From the NCBI GenBank assembly GCA_036273615.1, contig DASUHH010000032.1, positions 798 to 64,797 of the forward strand: DNA of 64,000 nucleotides, read 5' to 3'. A model generated the notes under the pieces. It ran no database searches and was not told the DNA's origin. It saw nothing but the letters and a program-made list of their open reading frames with translations. The translations under genes were made by a program, and so were the position numbers. Origin of the DNA: Allosphingosinicella sp. (lineage in GTDB: Bacteria; Pseudomonadota; Alphaproteobacteria; Sphingomonadales; Sphingomonadaceae). Of the stretch, positions 46,875 through 58,786 are shown in pieces. Within the stretch, counting starts at the first letter, position 1, and each line of letters opens with the position of its first letter.

Positions 46875-47066
46875 ACCGTTCGGGCTGAGCTTGTCCTCGA
46901 TACGCGCCGTCCCGGATCGAGTCCGGGGTCGGTCGCTACGCGGGATGAGCGGCTTTTCCATGATTTTCCGCTCATGCCGAGCAGGCATTGAGCGACGTCG
47001 AGATGCCGTATCGAAGCACAAGCCCAGGCCGAACCGAGCGGCCAAGCCTCTTTGCCCAAGCTCAGG
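46875..47066. repeat. composite MITE/REP cluster
   Basis: ACCGTTCGGGCTGAGCTTGTC arm (matches the 61.7-61.8 kb element), CCGGATCGAGTCCGG, and an ATGAGCGG/CCGCTCAT stem. Confidence 0.65.
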
Positions 47067-50007
47067 CGCGCCTTTTCATCTTCTCCGCCTGGACCCCCGC
47101 CATGCGCGGGACCAGCGACGCCGGCGCCGGGCGGCCGTAATAATAGCCCTGGCCCTGGTCGCAGCCGAGCGCCTGGAGCAATTTATGCTGGTGGGGCGTC
47201 TCGATACCCTCCGCGACGATGGTCTTGCCGAGCCGCCGGCCGAGGCCTGTCACGGCGTCGACGATCGCGGCGTCGCCCGGATCGTCCTCCAGCCCGCAGA
47301 CGAAGCTGCGGTCGATCTTGACGATGTCGACCGGGAATTGCTTGAGGTGCGACAGCGACGCGAAGCCGGTGCCGAAATCGTCGAGCGCGATCGAGATCCC
47401 CTCCCCGGCCAGCATCCTGAGCGCCCGCTCGACATATTCGGCACCGCGGCCGACGAAGACGGTCTCGGTCACTTCGAGCTGGAAGCATTCGCGCGGCACG
47501 CCCGCTTTGACCAGCCGCTCCAGCAGCCGCTCGGCGAAATCGCCGCGGCGGAACTCGGCGGCGGCGGCATTGACCGCGACATGGCCGAACGGAACGCCCT
47601 CGCCCCGCCAGCGCACGATGTCCTCGATCACCGATTCGATCATCCGGTCGCTGATCGCAGCGGCAAGGCTCAGATCGTCGAAGGCGGCGGCGACGCTCGC
47701 CGGCGACTGGATGCCGCGGCGCGGATGCCGCCAGCGCATCAGGGCCTCGAACCCGACCGGCCGCCCGGTCAGCAGATCGACCTTGGGCTGGTAATGGGGC
47801 TGGACGCTGCCCCTTTTCAGCGCGTCGCGGGCGAGGCGAAGCATCGACACGCGCTTCTGCGCCTCGAGCCGCATCTCGCCATGATAGAGGCGCAGGGTGC
47901 TTCGTCCGGCCGCCTTGGCGGCGTAGAGCGCGATGTCCGCATTCTTCATGAGATCGGTGCGGCTGTCGCCGTCGTGCGGATAGAGGCTTGCGCCGATGCT
48001 TGCGCGGCAATCGAGGATGCGGCCGCCATGGATGCAGGGTTCGGCGAGCCGTTGGAGCAGGGGCTGGACCACCGCCTCCACCGCCTCCGCGCTGCCGGCG
48101 TCGGGGAGCAGGATCGCGAACTCGTCGCCGCCGAGCCGGCCGACCACCGCCTCATCGCCGAACGCCGCGCGCAGCCTCTGGGCGAGGGTGCAGAGCATGG
48201 CGTCGCCGGCATCGTGCCCGACCGTGTCGTTGACCCGCTTGAAATCGTCGATGTCGAGTAGCAGCAGGGCGAAGCGAGTCTTCTCCGCCACCGCCCGGAC
48301 CACCGCCTCGTCGACCGCCTTCTGGAGAAGATAGCGGTTGGGAAGGCCGGTCAGGCAGTCGTGATTGGCCGACCAATGCGCCTGCTCCTCGGCCGCCTTC
48401 TGCTCCGAAATGTCGCGCGACATGACGAGGATGCGCTGCGGCTTGCCGTCCGGCCCGGGCACCGGCGCGACGAGAATGTCCCACCAGCGCGGCGCGTCGC
48501 GTCCCGACGGGCTGACATGGACGACGAGCCTGCCGATCCCGCCCCGCCGCGCCTTGCGCAGCGCGGCCGCGGTCTCCTTCGTGCAGGCGGGGACACGCCG
48601 GGTCCAGTTCTGACCGACAAGCTCCTCGTTCGTCTTGCCGTAGACGCGCTGGGTCGCGGCATTGGCGCGCAGCACCGTGCCGTCGAGATCGAGCAGGGAG
48701 ACACAGTCCGGGCTCGCCTCGATCATCGAGCGATTGAGCCGCTCGCTCTCGTCGAGCGCCTGCTGGGCGCGGACGCGCTGGTGGACGTCGGTGCAGGTGC
48801 CGTACCAGCGCACGATCCGGCCGTCGCCGTCGCGCTTCGGAAGGCCGCGCGACAGGATCCAGCGCTCCCCATCGCCGGTCCCGAACCGCATCTCCTGCTC
48901 GAACAAGGCGCCGGTCGCCATCGAACGGATCCAGGCCGCCGCCACTCGCTCGACGTCGTCGGGATGGATCATCCTGATCCAGCCGCCCGGACTGGCGAGC
49001 TCCTCGCGGGCGGCGAACAGGCCGCGCCACTGGTCGCTGATATAGTCGATCCGGCCCTGGGCGTCCGCGCTCCAGATGACGTGCGGAATGGCGTCGAGGA
49101 TGTGCTGGGCGCGCCGCTCGCTCGCCTGTGCCGCCTCGCGGGCGAGGACCCGGTCGTGGATGTCGGTGCAGGTGCCGTACCAGCGCAGGATCGCGCCGTC
49201 GGTGCCGCGCTCGGCATGGCCGCGGCTCTCGACCCAGCGATAGTCGCCTGTATGATGGCGCAGGCGATATTCGGCCTCATAGGGCTCGCCGGTCTCGCGG
49301 CTGCGGTGCCAGGCATCGCGCACCCGCTCCATATCCTCGGCCCAGTAGAGGCCGTCCCATTCCGGCCCCTCGAGCGAGCCTTCGGGAAGACCGGTGAACT
49401 CGTACCAGCGCTGGTTGTAATAATCGGGGCGGCTGCCGCTTCCATCCATCGACCAGACGATGTGCGGCATGATGTCGATGAGGCGGTGGAACTTGCGCTC
49501 GCTGTCGCGCAGGGCGGCGCTCGCGGCGACCCGGTCGTGGACGTCGGTGCAGCTTCCGTACCAGATGAGGACCCTGCCCGATTCGTCGCGCTCCGGCCGG
49601 CCGACGCTGCGGATCCAGCGATAGCCGCCGTCGCGGTGGCGGAGGCGATATTCGCATTGGTAGGGAAGGCCGGTGTCGAGGCTGCGCTGCCAGGCCGCCC
49701 GCGCCCGCTCCCGGTCCTCGGGGTGGACGAGGTCGAGCCGGCGGAATCCGCCCGCCTTGCCGATCCCGTCGACGCCGGTGAAATCGAGCCACTGGCTGCT
49801 ATAATGCGATTCGCCGGTGTCGGCGCGCCAGCACCAGAACATATGCGACGTATGGGTGAGCAGGGCGCGCAGGCTGTGCCAGGCGGCCACATCCTCCTCG
49901 TCGAGAATGGCAGGCGAAGGCGCGGCATCCCGCGCCGCGGACAGGCCGGCCGGCTGCTCGGCCGGCGCCGCGCCGGAGCGCAAGTCCCGCGGATGTTCCT
50001 GCCGCAT
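47062..50007 (-). CDS. multi-PAS diguanylate cyclase/phosphodiesterase (GGDEF-EAL)
   Basis: About four PAS/PAC repeats (W.G.CTD.H.R), HDCLTGLPNR, RLGGDEF, FEALMRW and DDFGTGFASL. Confidence 0.95.
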   Translation of the reverse strand: MRQEHPRDLRSGAAPAEQPAGLSAARDAAPSPAILDEEDVAAWHSLRALLTHTSHMFWCWRADTGESHYSSQWLDFTGVDGIGKAGGFRRLDLVHPEDRERARAAWQRSLDTGLPYQCEYRLRHRDGGYRWIRSVGRPERDESGRVLIWYGSCTDVHDRVAASAALRDSERKFHRLIDIMPHIVWSMDGSGSRPDYYNQRWYEFTGLPEGSLEGPEWDGLYWAEDMERVRDAWHRSRETGEPYEAEYRLRHHTGDYRWVESRGHAERGTDGAILRWYGTCTDIHDRVLAREAAQASERRAQHILDAIPHVIWSADAQGRIDYISDQWRGLFAAREELASPGGWIRMIHPDDVERVAAAWIRSMATGALFEQEMRFGTGDGERWILSRGLPKRDGDGRIVRWYGTCTDVHQRVRAQQALDESERLNRSMIEASPDCVSLLDLDGTVLRANAATQRVYGKTNEELVGQNWTRRVPACTKETAAALRKARRGGIGRLVVHVSPSGRDAPRWWDILVAPVPGPDGKPQRILVMSRDISEQKAAEEQAHWSANHDCLTGLPNRYLLQKAVDEAVVRAVAEKTRFALLLLDIDDFKRVNDTVGHDAGDAMLCTLAQRLRAAFGDEAVVGRLGGDEFAILLPDAGSAEAVEAVVQPLLQRLAEPCIHGGRILDCRASIGASLYPHDGDSRTDLMKNADIALYAAKAAGRSTLRLYHGEMRLEAQKRVSMLRLARDALKRGSVQPHYQPKVDLLTGRPVGFEALMRWRHPRRGIQSPASVAAAFDDLSLAAAISDRMIESVIEDIVRWRGEGVPFGHVAVNAAAAEFRRGDFAERLLERLVKAGVPRECFQLEVTETVFVGRGAEYVERALRMLAGEGISIALDDFGTGFASLSHLKQFPVDIVKIDRSFVCGLEDDPGDAAIVDAVTGLGRRLGKTIVAEGIETPHQHKLLQALGCDQGQGYYYGRPAPASLVPRMAGVQAEKMKRRA

Positions 50008-50227
50008 CAGCGCAACCGTGCCCGGTCCGGAGAAGAAACCATCGGTGCCGCGATCCTCAAAAGCCGGCGCCCCCACTCCATGCCGTTGAATGGCCTTAAG
50101 AACGAGCCGTTGAGGAAGGCTTAAACCGCACTCGTCTCCGCAATGTGCATGCGTTCATCGGAAAGCATCGCCCGTCGCCTTCCGGCGCCGCCTGCTTTAT
50201 GCCCGGCGGGAGCATGAAGGAGATGCA

Positions 50228-55107: not shown

Positions 55108-55371
55108 TCAGCAGGTGTGGCGGCCGATATGACGGCCGAGCAGGGCGCCGCCGACGCCGCCGATGACCGGCGCGGCAAGGCCGCCGGCCACGGCATGGCC
55201 GACCAGTGCGCCGGCGCCGCCGCCGACGATCGCGCCGGTCGTGCCGCTATGGTGGCAGACGCGGGTGCGGTAATAATGGTGGTGGCGATGATGATGGCGC
55301 GCCGCATCGGCCGGCGTCGCCGCAGGCAGCGCAACGGCCGCGGCCGTCAGGGCAAGAACGAGCTTACGCAT
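55108..55371 (-). CDS. small secreted glycine-zipper protein with N-terminal His tract
   Basis: RBS AAGGAG, signal peptide, RHHHRHHH, then GAIVGGGAGALVG...IGGVGGALLG flanked by two Cys. Confidence 0.85.
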   Translation of the reverse strand: MRKLVLALTAAAVALPAATPADAARHHHRHHHYYRTRVCHHSGTTGAIVGGGAGALVGHAVAGGLAAPVIGGVGGALLGRHIGRHTC

Positions 55372-55424: not shown

Positions 55425-55573
55425 GACCGGCGCCGCAACGAAATCACGGTTCATCGTCGAAGTCTGAACCTGGCATAACGGGCGCGAATGCGGCTTGACC
55501 GCGCCGCGCCGGCCCGGGACGCTGGTTCCGGGCACGATGTCCGAAAAACGGGCTGGAAGGACGAGGGAACGCG

Positions 55574-56386
55574 ATGACGCTCTGTGCCATCTGGCGGGAC
55601 GAAGGCCGGATCCACATGGCGTCCGATTCCTGCCTCACCGTCGGCCCCGGCCGGACCGCGAATATCGGCATCAAGGTGGCGCGGGAGCGGTTCGTGGTTC
55701 GCGCCGCCGACGATCCCGCACGGCAAAAGCCGCCCGCCGCCGCCGGCGACGTCGCCTTCTGCTTCGCCGGCATGGAAACCGGCGCGGTCCACATGAAGGA
55801 AGCGCTCGCCGCGATCCTCGGCAACCTCCGCCTCCGCCCCGGCGCCGACGAAATCCGCTTCGAGGGCATCGCCCGGCTCGCCTTCGCCGCCTACAAGGCG
55901 GTCGCCGGGGCGATGGGCGCCGCGATCGCCCAAAAGGGCTTCTCGCGGGTGGTGGTGGCCGGCCTGTGCCCGGCCGGCGGCGATTACCGGGCCTTCTGCT
56001 TCAGCACCCGGATCGACGAGGCGGACGAGTGTGCGCCGGTCGGCCACCATATGGACGAGATCCTCGCCCGCCGCCGCAACGTCTTCTTCATCGGCAGCGC
56101 CGCCGCCGCCGCGAGGGCGCGCGCCAGGGCGCTCGCCCGCCCGCCCACGACACGCGACATATTGGCCATCCTCCAGGCCGCGATCGACGATCCCGGCCAG
56201 CCCTCCGTCGCCGGCCGCCTCCAATATGGCCGTTTCGAAGGCCCCGACTTCCGCCTCATGGGCGTGCGCGAAACGGCGCGGGACACCCACGCCTGGCGCG
56301 GCGCCCTCGACCTCGGCTCGGCGGAATTCGGCCGGGATTTCGCGATCGACTATCCGCTCATCCCGCTCGAGGGCTTTGAGCCCTGA
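55574..56386 (+). CDS. Ntn-hydrolase / proteasome beta-subunit-like protein (putative threonine protease)
   Basis: After Met removal it has Thr1, Asp17 (MASDS) and Lys33 (IKV), later FAG and IGSA. RBS GAGGG. Confidence 0.6.
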   Translation: MTLCAIWRDEGRIHMASDSCLTVGPGRTANIGIKVARERFVVRAADDPARQKPPAAAGDVAFCFAGMETGAVHMKEALAAILGNLRLRPGADEIRFEGIARLAFAAYKAVAGAMGAAIAQKGFSRVVVAGLCPAGGDYRAFCFSTRIDEADECAPVGHHMDEILARRRNVFFIGSAAAAARARARALARPPTTRDILAILQAAIDDPGQPSVAGRLQYGRFEGPDFRLMGVRETARDTHAWRGALDLGSAEFGRDFAIDYPLIPLEGFEP

Positions 56387-56660
56387 CAGTGCATCGCCGG
56401 CAGAAAAGCGGCGCCACCCGTCTCGGGCCGGCGAAATGTCGCATCGGTTCAAATTCGCGCGGAGACGCCTCCACCGCGGCGAAGCCGCATCTTATCCTGG
56501 CGCGCCGGAGGAAAGCCGCTGCCATTTCAGCGGCCGAGAGTCTCCGCGTCTCTGCGCCTCTGCGCGCAACCGATCCTGCTTCCATCCCACATGGCGGCGG
56601 CATTGCGCCGGCCGCCCGAAAACGCGATAGGCCCGAAACAGAGATAAAGGAGCGCGCGCC

Positions 56661-56774
56661 ATGGCCAAAGGTCAGAAGAAGAGCAACAAGGAAGCCAGGA
56701 AGCCCAAGAAGGAGGTCAAGAAGGTGATCGCCGCCAACCCCTCCACCAAGGGCACGTCCCCGGCGAAGGGCTGA
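56661..56774 (+). CDS. Lys-rich microprotein (37 aa)
   Basis: RBS AAGGAG; MAKGQKKSNKEARKPKKEVKK...; TGATG overlap with the next ORF. Below the ORF-track cutoff. Confidence 0.7.
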   Translation: MAKGQKKSNKEARKPKKEVKKVIAANPSTKGTSPAKG

Positions 56775-56953
56775 TGGCCGAGCCCTTCGCCCGCCACCGC
56801 CAGCCCTGGAAGAGCGAGGAGATCCAGAAGCTCCACCGGCTGGCGGCCAAGGGCATGGGCGTCAAGGCGATCGCGAAAGCGCTGACCCGCACCGAGGAAT
56901 CGGTGCAGGACCGGGCGAAGGCCGACGGCGTGAAGATCGCGAAATTGCGGTAA
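56774..56953 (+). CDS. small Myb/SANT- or GcrA-like HTH protein (59 aa)
   Basis: PWKSEEIQKL..LA.KG.....IAKALTRTEESV...A; translationally coupled to the upstream ORF. Confidence 0.7.
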   Translation: MAEPFARHRQPWKSEEIQKLHRLAAKGMGVKAIAKALTRTEESVQDRAKADGVKIAKLR

Positions 56954-57023
56954 CGGCGCGGCAAGGGTGCCGCCCCGGCCCCTGCCGGGCATTCGGCGCC
57001 GCCGACGCCTGGAGGCAAAGCCA

Positions 57024-57173
57024 ATGTCGCTCGACGACGAGATCATCGACACGCCGGACGGGCCCATGACCTGGGCCCAGTGGAAGAAAAAGCACCCCGT
57101 CCAGATCCCTTCGCGCCGCACGAAGGGAAAGAAGCTGCCGGTCAAGGTGAAGCGCTTCACGTCGGACCCCTGA
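57024..57173 (+). CDS. basic microprotein (49 aa)
   Basis: RBS GGAGG; MSLDDEIIDTPDGPMTWAQWKKKHPVQIPSRRTKGK. Confidence 0.65.
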   Translation: MSLDDEIIDTPDGPMTWAQWKKKHPVQIPSRRTKGKKLPVKVKRFTSDP

Positions 57174-57208
57174 CCGCCCGCGCGGCCGGGCCCGCCGCTG
57201 ATCGGGGC

Positions 57209-57439
57209 TCAGGCGAGAGGGAAGCTGCGGCTTTCCCCATGGCGCCTGGCGGCCGTTTCCGCGGCTTCGTTATGCACCCTTGCATAGAGGCCGCGCGCCC
57301 CGCCCTCGACAATCTCCGCGTCCGGGTCGCTCTCCAGGAGCATCGGCAGCAGGTCGCGAGCCTCGTCTGGAGTCGCGGCAATCGCCACCAGCTTCGGATA
57401 TTCGGGTCGTTCGGCCTGCGGCCGCTTGTTCCATCTCAT
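57209..57439 (-). CDS. small hypothetical protein (76 aa)
   Basis: ATG start and plausible alpha/beta composition; convergent with the plus-strand microproteins. Confidence 0.45.
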   Translation of the reverse strand: MRWNKRPQAERPEYPKLVAIAATPDEARDLLPMLLESDPDAEIVEGGARGLYARVHNEAAETAARRHGESRSFPLA

Positions 57440-57557
57440 CCGTCCCGCTTCACCAGAAACCCGCCCCCCGCGCAACGGAATTGACTGGGTTCGCGAGCAT
57501 TTCCGGACGCTCCTTGAGGCTCGGGACAATCGGCAGGCGCAAAGCCCCGCGCGCCGC

Positions 57558-57785
57558 CTATTTGCTCGCAAACTGCCCCGGTTGCGCCCCGAAATTCCGC
57601 TTCGCATGCGCCCGGGCGGCGTTCGCCGTCTCGAACAGCTCCTCCACGCGGGTCGTCGTCACGATCGGGTAGCCCTGGCTGTTGTAGCGCGTGTCGCGGC
57701 AGCTCAGCCGCCACGAGCCTTCGCCTTCCCTGACGATGAGGAAGGGCGTTGCCGCGGCCCGGCTGTGATCGGAAGTGCCGCTCAT
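57558..57785 (-). CDS. small hypothetical protein (75 aa)
   Basis: RBS AAGGAG; directly downstream of infA on the same strand. Confidence 0.65.
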   Translation of the reverse strand: MSGTSDHSRAAATPFLIVREGEGSWRLSCRDTRYNSQGYPIVTTTRVEELFETANAARAHAKRNFGAQPGQFASK

Positions 57786-57845
57786 GTCATTCTCCTTTTT
57801 GCCGCCGCGCCCGCGCGCTCCCTCGCCTGTCCTGAACGCGCGCCA

Positions 57846-58106
57846 TCAGCGCTTCGCTCCCGGCCGCCGGCCGGGGCCCTGCCCCGGCGTGCGCTCGCGG
57901 AAGATCAGGCGGCCCTTGGTCAGATCGTAGGGCGTCATCTCGACATGGACGCGGTCGCCGACCACCGATCGGATGCGGAACCGGCGCATCTTCCCCGCAG
58001 TGTAGACGATCACCCGGTGATCGTTGTCGAGCCGGACGCCGAAGCGGCCGTCCGGAAGGATCTCGTCTATCTGTCCCTCGACGGTGAGGGTCGCTTCCTT
58101 GGCCAT
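57846..58106 (-). CDS. infA: translation initiation factor IF-1 (divergent copy with basic C-tail)
   Basis: MAKE.....EG.I.E.LP...F.V.LDN......[28 protein letters not shown]. Confidence 0.93.
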
Positions 58107-58786
58107 GGTCTCTCCGCAGGATGAGCGCGGGCTGCGCGCGGGAATGGGGAACGGGCCGCCGGGGCGGATGCCGCGGCGGGTCGGCTCTGAAGCGTGGAAG
58201 GGAAAGCGGGCGAGCCCGTTATTCGCTCGCAAGCGACGTCGCCAGGGGGCGATAGGAGCCGCGCCGCCGGGACGCAATCCCGCAAAGCGGACGGGCGGCG
58301 CCAGGCCCCCGCCTCGACGGCGCCGTCCATGGCGCCGGCCTCGCCCGCGCCGTGCGGCACGAGCAGGCCGAAGCAATCCGCATAGGGGATGAAGATCGGC
58401 CGCCGCGCCTCCGCCCCTCCGCGCGGCGCGGCGCTCGCGGGGACCGGGACGGGCGGCAGCCTGCGCCGCGAGACGTTCGGCCGGTCCACGACCATAAAGC
58501 TTGATCCTCTTGGACGGGAGCATTGGAGATATCGTGCGGGAGCCTGGCCATGAGCAGGTGCGCGGTGCCCCGCACCGCGCAGCCCTGTCCGGGGAGCAAA
58601 GCGGGCCTGCTCGATCCAAGCCGATCATGCTTTATTGTTGAAGATCGCCCCGACATAGTCGCCGCCGAACGTGTAGACCTTCTCGGCCGACACGCGCCCG
58701 AGCGGCGTTCCGTCCAGGCCGTAAATATTGTCGTCCAGCCGAAAGCCCTGGGGCCGGCCGTCGGCGGCATAGATGGAATCGGCCAC
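58067..58786 (-). pseudogene. beta-repeat (4-fold beta-flower-like) gene split by a MITE
   Basis: The 5' half VADSIYAADGRPQGFRLDDNIYGLDGTPLGRV..EKVYTFGGDYVGAIFNN joins in frame to [15 protein letters not shown]... when 58497-58632 and one TA are removed. The 3' end is uncertain. Confidence 0.7.
58497..58632. mobile_element. 136-bp MITE with TA target-site duplication
   Basis: Imperfect TIRs AAGC(T/A)TGATC..CTTGGA, flanked by TA at 58495-58496 and 58633-58634. Confidence 0.8.

Follow-up and report, generated by a model that had tools for sequence, protein, structure and literature searches.

Stand-alone bacterial proteasome homologues show a surprising variety, but a substrate is known for connectase alone, and no genomic context points to a function (PMC8665760). 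The survey of Fuchs, Alva and Lupas 2021 (PMC8665760) described 22 uncharacterised proteasome-like subfamilies (DPH, RPC, PPH, CPH, AAH, WPH, PHI, ACC, PMI-1 to PMI-6, PHD, FC1 to FC5, DAH and GPH), most of which have no partners; they are without propeptides, AAA+ partners and informative contexts. Genes for ATP-grasp, alpha-E and transglutaminase proteins make up a conserved operon with that of Anbu, whose C-terminus forms a long coiled-coil helix, H5 (PMC8665760, PMC5666114). Connectase, which is confined to methanogens, has lost helices H1 and H2 and carries an insertion of two helices between strands S3 and S4 (PMC8665760). The subject of the present analysis is a gene at positions 55574-56386 of a 64,000-nucleotide stretch of Allosphingosinicella sp. 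DNA (contig DASUHH010000032.1; the whole stretch is called the window below). Its product is probably a cytoplasmic, proteasome-like N-terminal nucleophile (Ntn) hydrolase, which has neither a propeptide nor a partner gene and which, in structural predictions, lies nearest to Anbu and the proteasome beta subunit.

The gene, its family and the predicted fold

The region of the gene has a G+C content of 69.5% and is crowded with overlapping open reading frames (ORFs) on both strands. In the frame of 55574-56386 the GC fractions at codon positions 1, 2 and 3 were 0.71, 0.54 and 0.90, and this coding pattern was not found in the overlapping ORFs of either strand. The closest orthologue (88% identity) lies on metagenome DNA syntenic with the window (locus L001), and its 90%-identity cluster includes a protein of an Allosphingosinicella metagenome-assembled genome (MAG). 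The ratio of non-synonymous to synonymous substitution rates (dN/dS) between the two genes was 0.25. The codon-position composition, the orthologue and the dN/dS ratio thus establish a real gene under purifying selection. The translation starts MTLCAIWRDEGRIHMASDSCLTVGPGRTANIGIKVARERF, the N-terminal letters being MTLCAIWRDEGRIHMASDSCLTVGPGRTANIGIKV, with a Met-Thr start. No other start codon lies between the in-frame stop at 55496-55498 and the ATG, which makes a propeptide impossible, and a putative Shine-Dalgarno-like GAGGG motif supports this start. Rfam, promoter and terminator scans near the gene gave nothing of note.

A word-indexed homologue search of 5.8 billion clusters yielded 7 proteins, and 12 in a second round. 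An exhaustive hidden Markov model (HMM) search, which covered 1.84 billion representatives, returned 532 matches at E<=1e-3 and 141 at E<=1e-30, nearly all of them 250-300 residues long and aligned from residue 1. Within 15 billion proteins, the family comprises about 530 clusters at 50% identity. Its members, all annotated ‘hypothetical protein’ (for example WP_145859754.1, WP_131538549.1, WP_183971596.1 and WP_341653636.1), are scattered over Bacteroidota, Alpha- and Gammaproteobacteria, Verrucomicrobiota and Balneolaceae, and are present in low-GC phyla. Among the first 155 proteins retrieved, 133 start with M-T and 2 with V-T, and the others resemble truncated or mis-started ORFs. Two members depart from the usual gene structure. 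In a Verrucomicrobiae MAG (L024:8001-9404), a 467-residue fusion, either real or due to a lost stop codon, places a GrpB domain of nucleotidyltransferase fold (PF04229; residues 304-458, E 1.3e-30) after the proteasome-like domain. In a long-read Flavobacteriales MAG (L025:8001-8871), the gene is frameshifted after about residue 77, as a pseudogene or through an assembly error.

Conservation was assessed in an alignment of 120-122 full-length homologues, with a mean identity to the query of about 26% and lengths of 248-307 residues in the 120-member version. D18, K34 and G174 (ORF numbering) were invariant in the 120 homologues. Residue T2, the mature Thr1, was Thr in 118 (98%) and Ser in the other 2, a swap that would be expected of a nucleophile. 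Counted from Thr = 1, Asp stands at position 17 in 99 of the 120 and Lys at position 33 in 76, and the canonical Thr1/Asp17/Lys33 spacing is the family mode. A preliminary description of the locus had reported exactly this spacing, which is read directly in the ORF, and had made its proposal dependent on conservation of the three residues, which holds across this diverse set. The motifs that it quoted, AFCFAG (with Gly66), FFIGSA (174-176) and D...SVAG..Q (D206 to Q217), are all present in the translation. Positions conserved at 93% or more in the 120-122 homologues were G66, G130, C132, V212-G213-G214, Q217, G219 and F226, with G66 (98%), G130, V212, G214 and Q217 each at 97% or more, and V212, G213, G214 and Q217 within 95-99%. 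At position 175, 69% of members have Ser; at position 176, 89% have Gly, and the window protein has Ala. The equivalent of proteasome Gly47 falls at position 65-66 in most of the 120 members, and therefore an insertion of about 19 residues, noted earlier as some 20 residues before AFCFAG and seen as a 19-column gap relative to the Thermoplasma beta subunit, is a family-wide feature. Two cysteines, Cys3 of the mature protein (76%; ORF residue 4) and Cys131 (93%; ORF residue 132), occur together in 86 of the 120 members. Where one of them is absent, a hydrophobic residue takes its place, a pattern suggestive of packing in the protein core rather than of catalysis or a disulfide bond; Anbu likewise has Cys at position 3.

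The AlphaFold2 (AF2) model built from the 120 homologues had a predicted local distance difference test (pLDDT) score of 92.7 and a predicted template modelling (pTM) score of 0.90, with no segment below 50, and replaced an earlier model from 7 sequences (pLDDT 65.5). Its elements follow the order of a proteasome subunit: strands S1-S4, helices H1 (68-82) and H2 (96-118), four middle strands, helices H3 (177-185) and H4 (193-205), and two further strands, after which a C-terminus of short strands replaces H5. The S3/S4 insertion (44-55) is predicted to be non-helical and to form a loop or hairpin extension. The C-terminal extension, in which an RG..L....PF motif is partly conserved, is modelled with strands at 239-242 and 262-264 (pLDDT of the block, 81-94). 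A Foldseek search of the PDB with this model gave 391 matches at E<=1e-3, of which the best 50, each with probability 1.00, comprised nothing but proteasome alpha or beta subunits and Anbu; no chain of HslV, BPH or connectase was among these 50. The lowest E-value (1.3e-6) belonged to the beta subunit of M. tuberculosis, and the top TM-scores to Anbu 5nyg (0.54-0.56 when normalised by the query and 0.62-0.65 by the target, with a root-mean-square deviation (rmsd) of about 4.8 Å). The shallower 7-sequence model gave the same picture. Among the viral models of BFVD, the best matches were phage proteins named proteasome beta or HslV, and weak matches to a linear amide C-N hydrolase and an NRDE protein appeared at ranks 22-23. 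The predicted structure is that of a proteasome-type Ntn protein; the four-layer alpha-beta-beta-alpha Ntn sandwich, whose absence had been named in advance as a refutation, is the fold on which the AF2 model and the proteasome and Anbu matches agree.

Searches of Pfam, NCBIfam and PDB sequences with the protein and the 7-sequence profile gave nothing useful. The window protein is below the gathering threshold of PF00227, with no match even at E<=10, and PF00227 is the sole Pfam family matched by more than one of the 120 members (2 of them, best E 0.004). A scan of 7 members against PADLOC-DB v2.0.0 gave no meaningful match, and one spurious match at E 0.006. The first 24 positions of the 120-sequence profile were aligned with the N-terminus of Anbu in PDB entry 5nyw, TLCIAWREKNNIHLASDSRISFG against TYCVAMRLSSGLAFASDSRTNAG, at E 1.1. 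By hhalign, the family was also compared with a profile made from 22 Thermoplasmata beta subunits (the Thermoplasma acidophilum sequence used is 100% identical to that in the PDB), and the two aligned over 168 columns with E 0.047 and a probability of about 1%. The register of this alignment placed ASDSR on ATERR (Asp17/Glu17 and Arg19) and IKV on KKL (Lys33), followed by the 19-column gap, CFAGS on TIAGL (Gly47), GSG on GSG (128-130) and VGG on SGG (169-171). D206 and S211 are offset from Asp166 and Ser169 by a longer loop, the VGG falling on SGG. With the single Thermoplasma sequence, the alignment was sensible and its statistics insignificant. The predicted features are collected in Table 1.

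Table 1. Positions in the window of the gene and of the sites predicted in its product.
Feature	Position	Strand	Basis or remark
Gene for the 270-residue proteasome-beta-like Ntn hydrolase	55574..56386, stop codon included	+	ORF, GC at third codon positions, dN/dS, AF2, Foldseek
Shine-Dalgarno-like GAGGG	55563..55567	+	6 nt 5′ of ATG; read from sequence
Thr1 codon (ORF residue 2)	55577..55579	+	Predicted N-terminal nucleophile once Met is removed
Asp17 codon (ORF residue 18)	55625..55627	+	ASDS(R/C) motif; hhalign partner is Thermoplasma beta Glu17
Lys33 codon (ORF residue 34)	55673..55675	+	GIKV motif; aligned with Thermoplasma beta Lys33
S3/S4 hairpin insertion (ORF residues 44-55)	55703..55738	+	AF2 loop between strands 35-43 and 56-65
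Gly66 codon, predicted oxyanion-hole Gly47 equivalent	55769..55771	+	CFAG motif; aligned with Thermoplasma beta MTIAG
G174-S175-A176	56093..56101	+	Equivalent of proteasome G128-S129-G130; aligned with Thermoplasma TGSGS
D206...S211-V212-A213-G214..Q217 loop	56189..56224	+	Putative equivalent of proteasome D166/S169-G170-G171 loop
C-terminal extension of about 37 residues (ORF residues 234-270)	56273..56383	+	Short strands, without H5 helix (AF2)

A stand-alone gene in varied surroundings

Within the window, the upstream neighbours of the gene encode a Ros/MucR regulator, a MarR regulator and a GDPD phosphodiesterase, and the downstream neighbours are infA, an SDR gene and a NAGPA-family gene. 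No ATPase, ligase or transglutaminase gene adjoins it there, and neither a further family member nor a canonical proteasome gene occurs in the window. An Anbu or HslV gene was found neither in the window nor in the other loci. A genome scan was made with a sub-alignment whose sequences share MTLCIAW and which samples part of the family. The loci compared, some of them from other searches, belong to Thalassospira, Pedobacter, Runella, Ferruginibacter, Pseudoxanthomonas, Idiomarina, Salinisphaerales, Balneolaceae, Flavobacteriales, Sphingobacteriales, Verrucomicrobiae and unassigned metagenomes. An all-against-all BLAST of the neighbours in 23 loci found only the family gene to be common to all, and 137 neighbour genes matched 113 different Pfam families. 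In about 20 independent loci there was no conserved neighbour, and no adjoining ATPase, ligase, HslU or ATP-grasp/alpha-E/transglutaminase operon. The family gene is genuinely stand-alone, and the earlier remark that no ATPase, transglutaminase or ligase partner adjoins it extends from the window to these loci. Genes for proteins of about 190-230 residues, located just 3′ of the family gene in several loci, were considered as a partner and rejected, being mutually unrelated by BLAST and Pfam.

About half of the loci have defence or mobile-element neighbours within 4.5 kb; the window and loci L015, L022 and L023 are in ordinary chromosomal surroundings. A complete type I restriction-modification (RM) system stands beside the family gene in three lineages (L003/L004, L024 and L025), accompanied in L025 by a DUF4145 protein. 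In Thalassospira sp. (L004:4263-7412; GCA_038112135.1) the order is tRNA-Leu(CAG), tyrosine integrase, family gene and HsdM; the family gene comes first in the cargo of an island that is integrated at the tRNA and includes a type I restriction system. The arrangement is repeated in L003, where a resolvase and a phage anti-repressor lie farther along, and in L020 a tRNA-Met lies immediately 5′ of the family gene. Further defence or mobile-element neighbours were Abi_C, HEPN_AbiV, a D12 methyltransferase pair and HicB/DUF2442, and RhuM and SNF2 helicases were also among the neighbours. In a Ferruginibacter MAG (L014:8962-15374, minus strand), the gene is adjoined by an 881-residue protein with a C-terminal PNP_UDP phosphorylase domain and by a 972-residue Cap4-type nuclease protein; these giant proteins have the appearance of uncharacterised defence effectors.

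The family is essentially cellular. Searches of INPHARED phages and PLSDB plasmids by tblastn with three members found nothing, two IMG/VR scans found a single contig, and the neighbours in prophage-like loci had no PHROG matches; a phage or plasmid origin was rejected on these results. The phage family phrog_16034 is a distant relative.

Other features of the loci were recorded in passing. The housekeeping gene sua5 (tRNA t6A synthesis) is convergent just 3′ of the family gene in L009:1737-2681, L011:3062-4009 and L023:9927-10886, at least two of these loci being from different lineages, and may mark an insertion hot spot or conserved synteny. In the window, a divergent 87-residue protein with a His-rich RHHHRHHHYY segment and a C-terminal glycine-zipper (weak PF13488/PF05433) is encoded at 55108-55371 (minus strand), and an 87-residue ORF has the same position 5′ of the orthologue in L001. 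Further upstream, a 1004-residue protein with multiple PAS domains, GGDEF and EAL (cyclic-di-GMP signalling) is encoded at 47062-50076 (minus strand), and the gene is conserved in the relative at L001 1453-4401. The DNA just 3′ of the family gene is rearranged between the two (window 56400-58700 and L001:11000-13900): the infA segment at window 57866-58108 corresponds to L001 11770-11529 and is inverted, and two more blocks are in swapped order. The 3′ side of L001 carries a CcdA/CcdB pair and an AAA_21 ATPase gene with a 245-residue gene (a possible defence system), none of which is in the window.

Proposed activity and alternative explanations

In the proposed mechanism, Met1 would be removed by methionine aminopeptidase, which permits Thr as the second residue. 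The freed Thr1 hydroxyl would then attack an amide bond, with a proton relay formed by its own alpha-amine and Lys33/Asp17, and Gly66 would supply the oxyanion hole. With no propeptide and no AAA+ unfoldase, either self-assembly or a narrow substrate site would have to restrain the activity. The S3/S4 insertion of the model sits where connectase carries its specificity element (PMC8665760), and the predicted C-terminal strands would replace the H5 helix, which stabilises double rings in proteasomes and Anbu. On account of these features, the protein would most likely be an ATP-independent peptidase or transpeptidase with a limited substrate range, acting on peptides or on a specific protein. 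The horizontal movement of the family and its frequent residence in defence or mobile islands suggest a possible role in phage or mobile-element conflicts. That it is a single-gene immune or conflict module, carried on integrative islands beside RM and abortive infection (Abi) genes, is a tentative proposal with the odds against it. On phage infection, such a module might degrade a protein of the phage; alternatively, it might cut an essential protein of the host and so bring about abortive infection, as the Lit protease does.

Several observations weigh against this account. The TM-scores are moderate, at about 0.5-0.65 with an rmsd of about 5 Å, and the sequence-only links to proteasome families, though consistent, are weak and statistically insignificant, so that the assignment as proteasome-like depends on predicted structure and motif conservation. 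The surroundings in the window are ordinary genes with no recognisable defence island; the base composition of the gene is native, and a composition scan of the window gave no sign of recent transfer at the gene. The share of loci with defence neighbours is a plain count without a background control, and the association is for that reason suggestive rather than measured. The window protein has SDSC, a rarer family variant, where the consensus has SDSR, and together with its L001 orthologue it deviates from the consensus at ORF residues 20, 30, 61, 67, 176 and 213 (R19C, D29N, G60A, S66M, G175A and G212A in mature numbering). These positions are 66-95% conserved in the family, and the window protein could be less active than typical members. 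The three Gly to Ala changes fit the very high G+C content.

The same six deviations, among them the change of Arg19 to Cys and two Gly to Ala replacements within catalytic loops, would also fit a catalytically dead structural protein comparable to proteasome alpha subunits, at least in this lineage. HslV, whose motif is GDGQ, does not have Arg19, and this residue is thus not essential to this type of active site. The window protein retains Thr1, Asp17, Lys33, Gly66, Gly174 and Ser175 and evolves at a dN/dS of 0.25, and the family-wide invariance of the triad, together with the interchange of Thr and Ser, fits selection on a nucleophile; loss of catalysis is accordingly judged highly improbable. 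Among active enzymes, a sequence-specific transpeptidase or ligase of the connectase type was considered, a monomer or small oligomer in which the S3/S4 insertion would lie over the active site and recognise a short motif of one target protein. The family insertion of about 19 residues lies in the S3/S4 hairpin, the site of the signature element of connectase (PMC8665760). There is no propeptide, ATPase or ring-associated partner, and extra C-terminal strands take the place of the helix on which double rings rely. Nevertheless, connectase lacks H1 and H2 and has a two-helix insertion, whereas the family has both helices and a loop or hairpin insertion; no neighbouring gene is conserved as a candidate substrate, and connectase is outside the best 50 Foldseek matches. 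An enzyme of this kind is therefore considered improbable.

An Ntn amidohydrolase acting on a non-protein amide (of a small molecule, or lipid-linked or nucleotide-linked) would agree with the chemical versatility of the Ntn superfamily (PMC8665760), with the weak BFVD matches to a linear amide C-N hydrolase and an NRDE protein, with the fusion of one member to the nucleotidyltransferase-fold GrpB domain, and with the highly varied neighbours. This reading is quite improbable, as the strong structural matches are all of proteasome type and include no acylases or amidotransferases, the GSG, SGG-like loop and ADSR-like motif are those of peptide-cleaving proteasome relatives, and no conserved metabolic cluster surrounds the gene. 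The least probable explanations, to which hardly any weight is given, are a divergent orthologue of HslV, Anbu or BPH and a chance ORF in a high-GC genome. The N-terminal motif is Anbu-like and the best TM-scores are those of Anbu, but neither HslU nor the ATP-grasp/alpha-E/transglutaminase operon occurs in any locus, the long C-terminal helix is absent from the model, there is no NCBIfam or Pfam match, and the Anbu profile match has E 1.1 over 24 residues. High-GC DNA does yield many spurious long ORFs, and 90 ORFs were listed in 12 kb here; a chance ORF is excluded by the codon-position GC, the homologues in low-GC phyla and the dN/dS ratio.

Searches of Pfam, NCBIfam, PADLOC and PDB sequences miss this family, yet it is confidently predicted to have the proteasome-subunit fold, with an intact Thr1 site. 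The recurrent type I RM, Abi and integrase neighbours offer a cheap, testable lead for an enzyme class without a functional clue. A link of proteasome homologues to defence islands has not been previously reported, and no paper after Fuchs 2021 was found that characterises this family or connects proteasome homologues with phage defence. If the conflict-module proposal were true, this would be the first proteasome-fold enzyme in bacterial anti-phage defence. A small proteasome-fold protein, free of both propeptide and partner, should also be useful for studies of structure and mechanism, and possibly for protein engineering of the connectase type.

Comparison with known systems

Anbu (5nyg/5nyw/5lox) is the best structural match to the family; it is likewise made without a propeptide, and is a bacterial protein of unknown function, as is the family. 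The preliminary description held that the sequence style was neither that of Anbu nor that of HslV. The second part of this statement stands, but the first needs correction, since the family consensus TLCIAWR..ASDSR resembles the Anbu N-terminus, TYCVAMR..ASDSRTNAG, and both read Thr1-x-Cys3...ASDSR. The resemblance in sequence is insignificant (E 1.1 over 24 residues of 5nyw). Unlike Anbu, the family does not have the conserved operon in any of about 20 loci, ends in short strands, and contains the extra S3/S4 insertion of about 19 residues. Judged by genomic context, size and sequence, the protein belongs to neither Anbu nor HslV.

The 20S proteasome beta subunit (PF00227, MEROPS T1; for example 1PMA of Thermoplasma acidophilum and 3mi0 of M. 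tuberculosis) has the same fold. The alignment keeps in register Thr1, Asp/Glu17, Lys33, Gly47, G128-S129-G130 and the SGG loop, as well as Arg19, which is present in the family consensus. The family differs from it in having no propeptide, alpha-subunit partner or AAA+ regulator, in falling below the PF00227 threshold, and in possessing the S3/S4 insertion and the C-terminal extension; its genes are scattered and island-borne rather than core genes. HslV (ClpQ) is also a bacterial proteasome-like Thr1 protease, but it is compact (about 175 residues), with TT...GDGQ motifs and a dependence on the HslU ATPase encoded next to it, and the family has none of these. BPH has a long acidic pore loop after H2, where the AF2 model of the family has a loop of about 6 residues. 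Connectase (6ZVZ), an archaeal protein ligase, is, like the family, a proteasome homologue without partners, and in both the active site could be gated by an insertion between S3 and S4. Unlike connectase, the family keeps H1 and H2, its insertion is predicted to be non-helical, and it is bacterial.

The closest parallels in kind are the subfamilies of Fuchs, Alva and Lupas, for instance PMI-1 and other clusters of group II, which are similarly divergent, bacterial and sporadic, and have the conserved triad with no propeptide or AAA+ partner. According to the published descriptions (PMC8665760), the family is distinguished from PMI-2 to PMI-6 by the absence of an H3/H4 insertion, from PPH and RPC by the presence of H2, and from group I by not being compact, and its taxa differ from those of the Firmicute, Delta-, Gamma- and Actinobacterial clusters. 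The accessions of the retrieved members match none of the representative accessions given there. The family may coincide with one of the 22 subfamilies, such as PMI-1, while the descriptions set it apart from most of them. The original proposal of an uncharacterised Ntn family is thus supported, there being no Pfam or NCBIfam model for it, with the qualification that these 22 subfamilies had already been described. Stand-alone bacterial proteasome homologues are known as a kind, and the present family constitutes a new or barely described subfamily, with features of its own in the S3/S4 insertion, the C-terminal strand extension and the frequent residence in defence and mobile islands.

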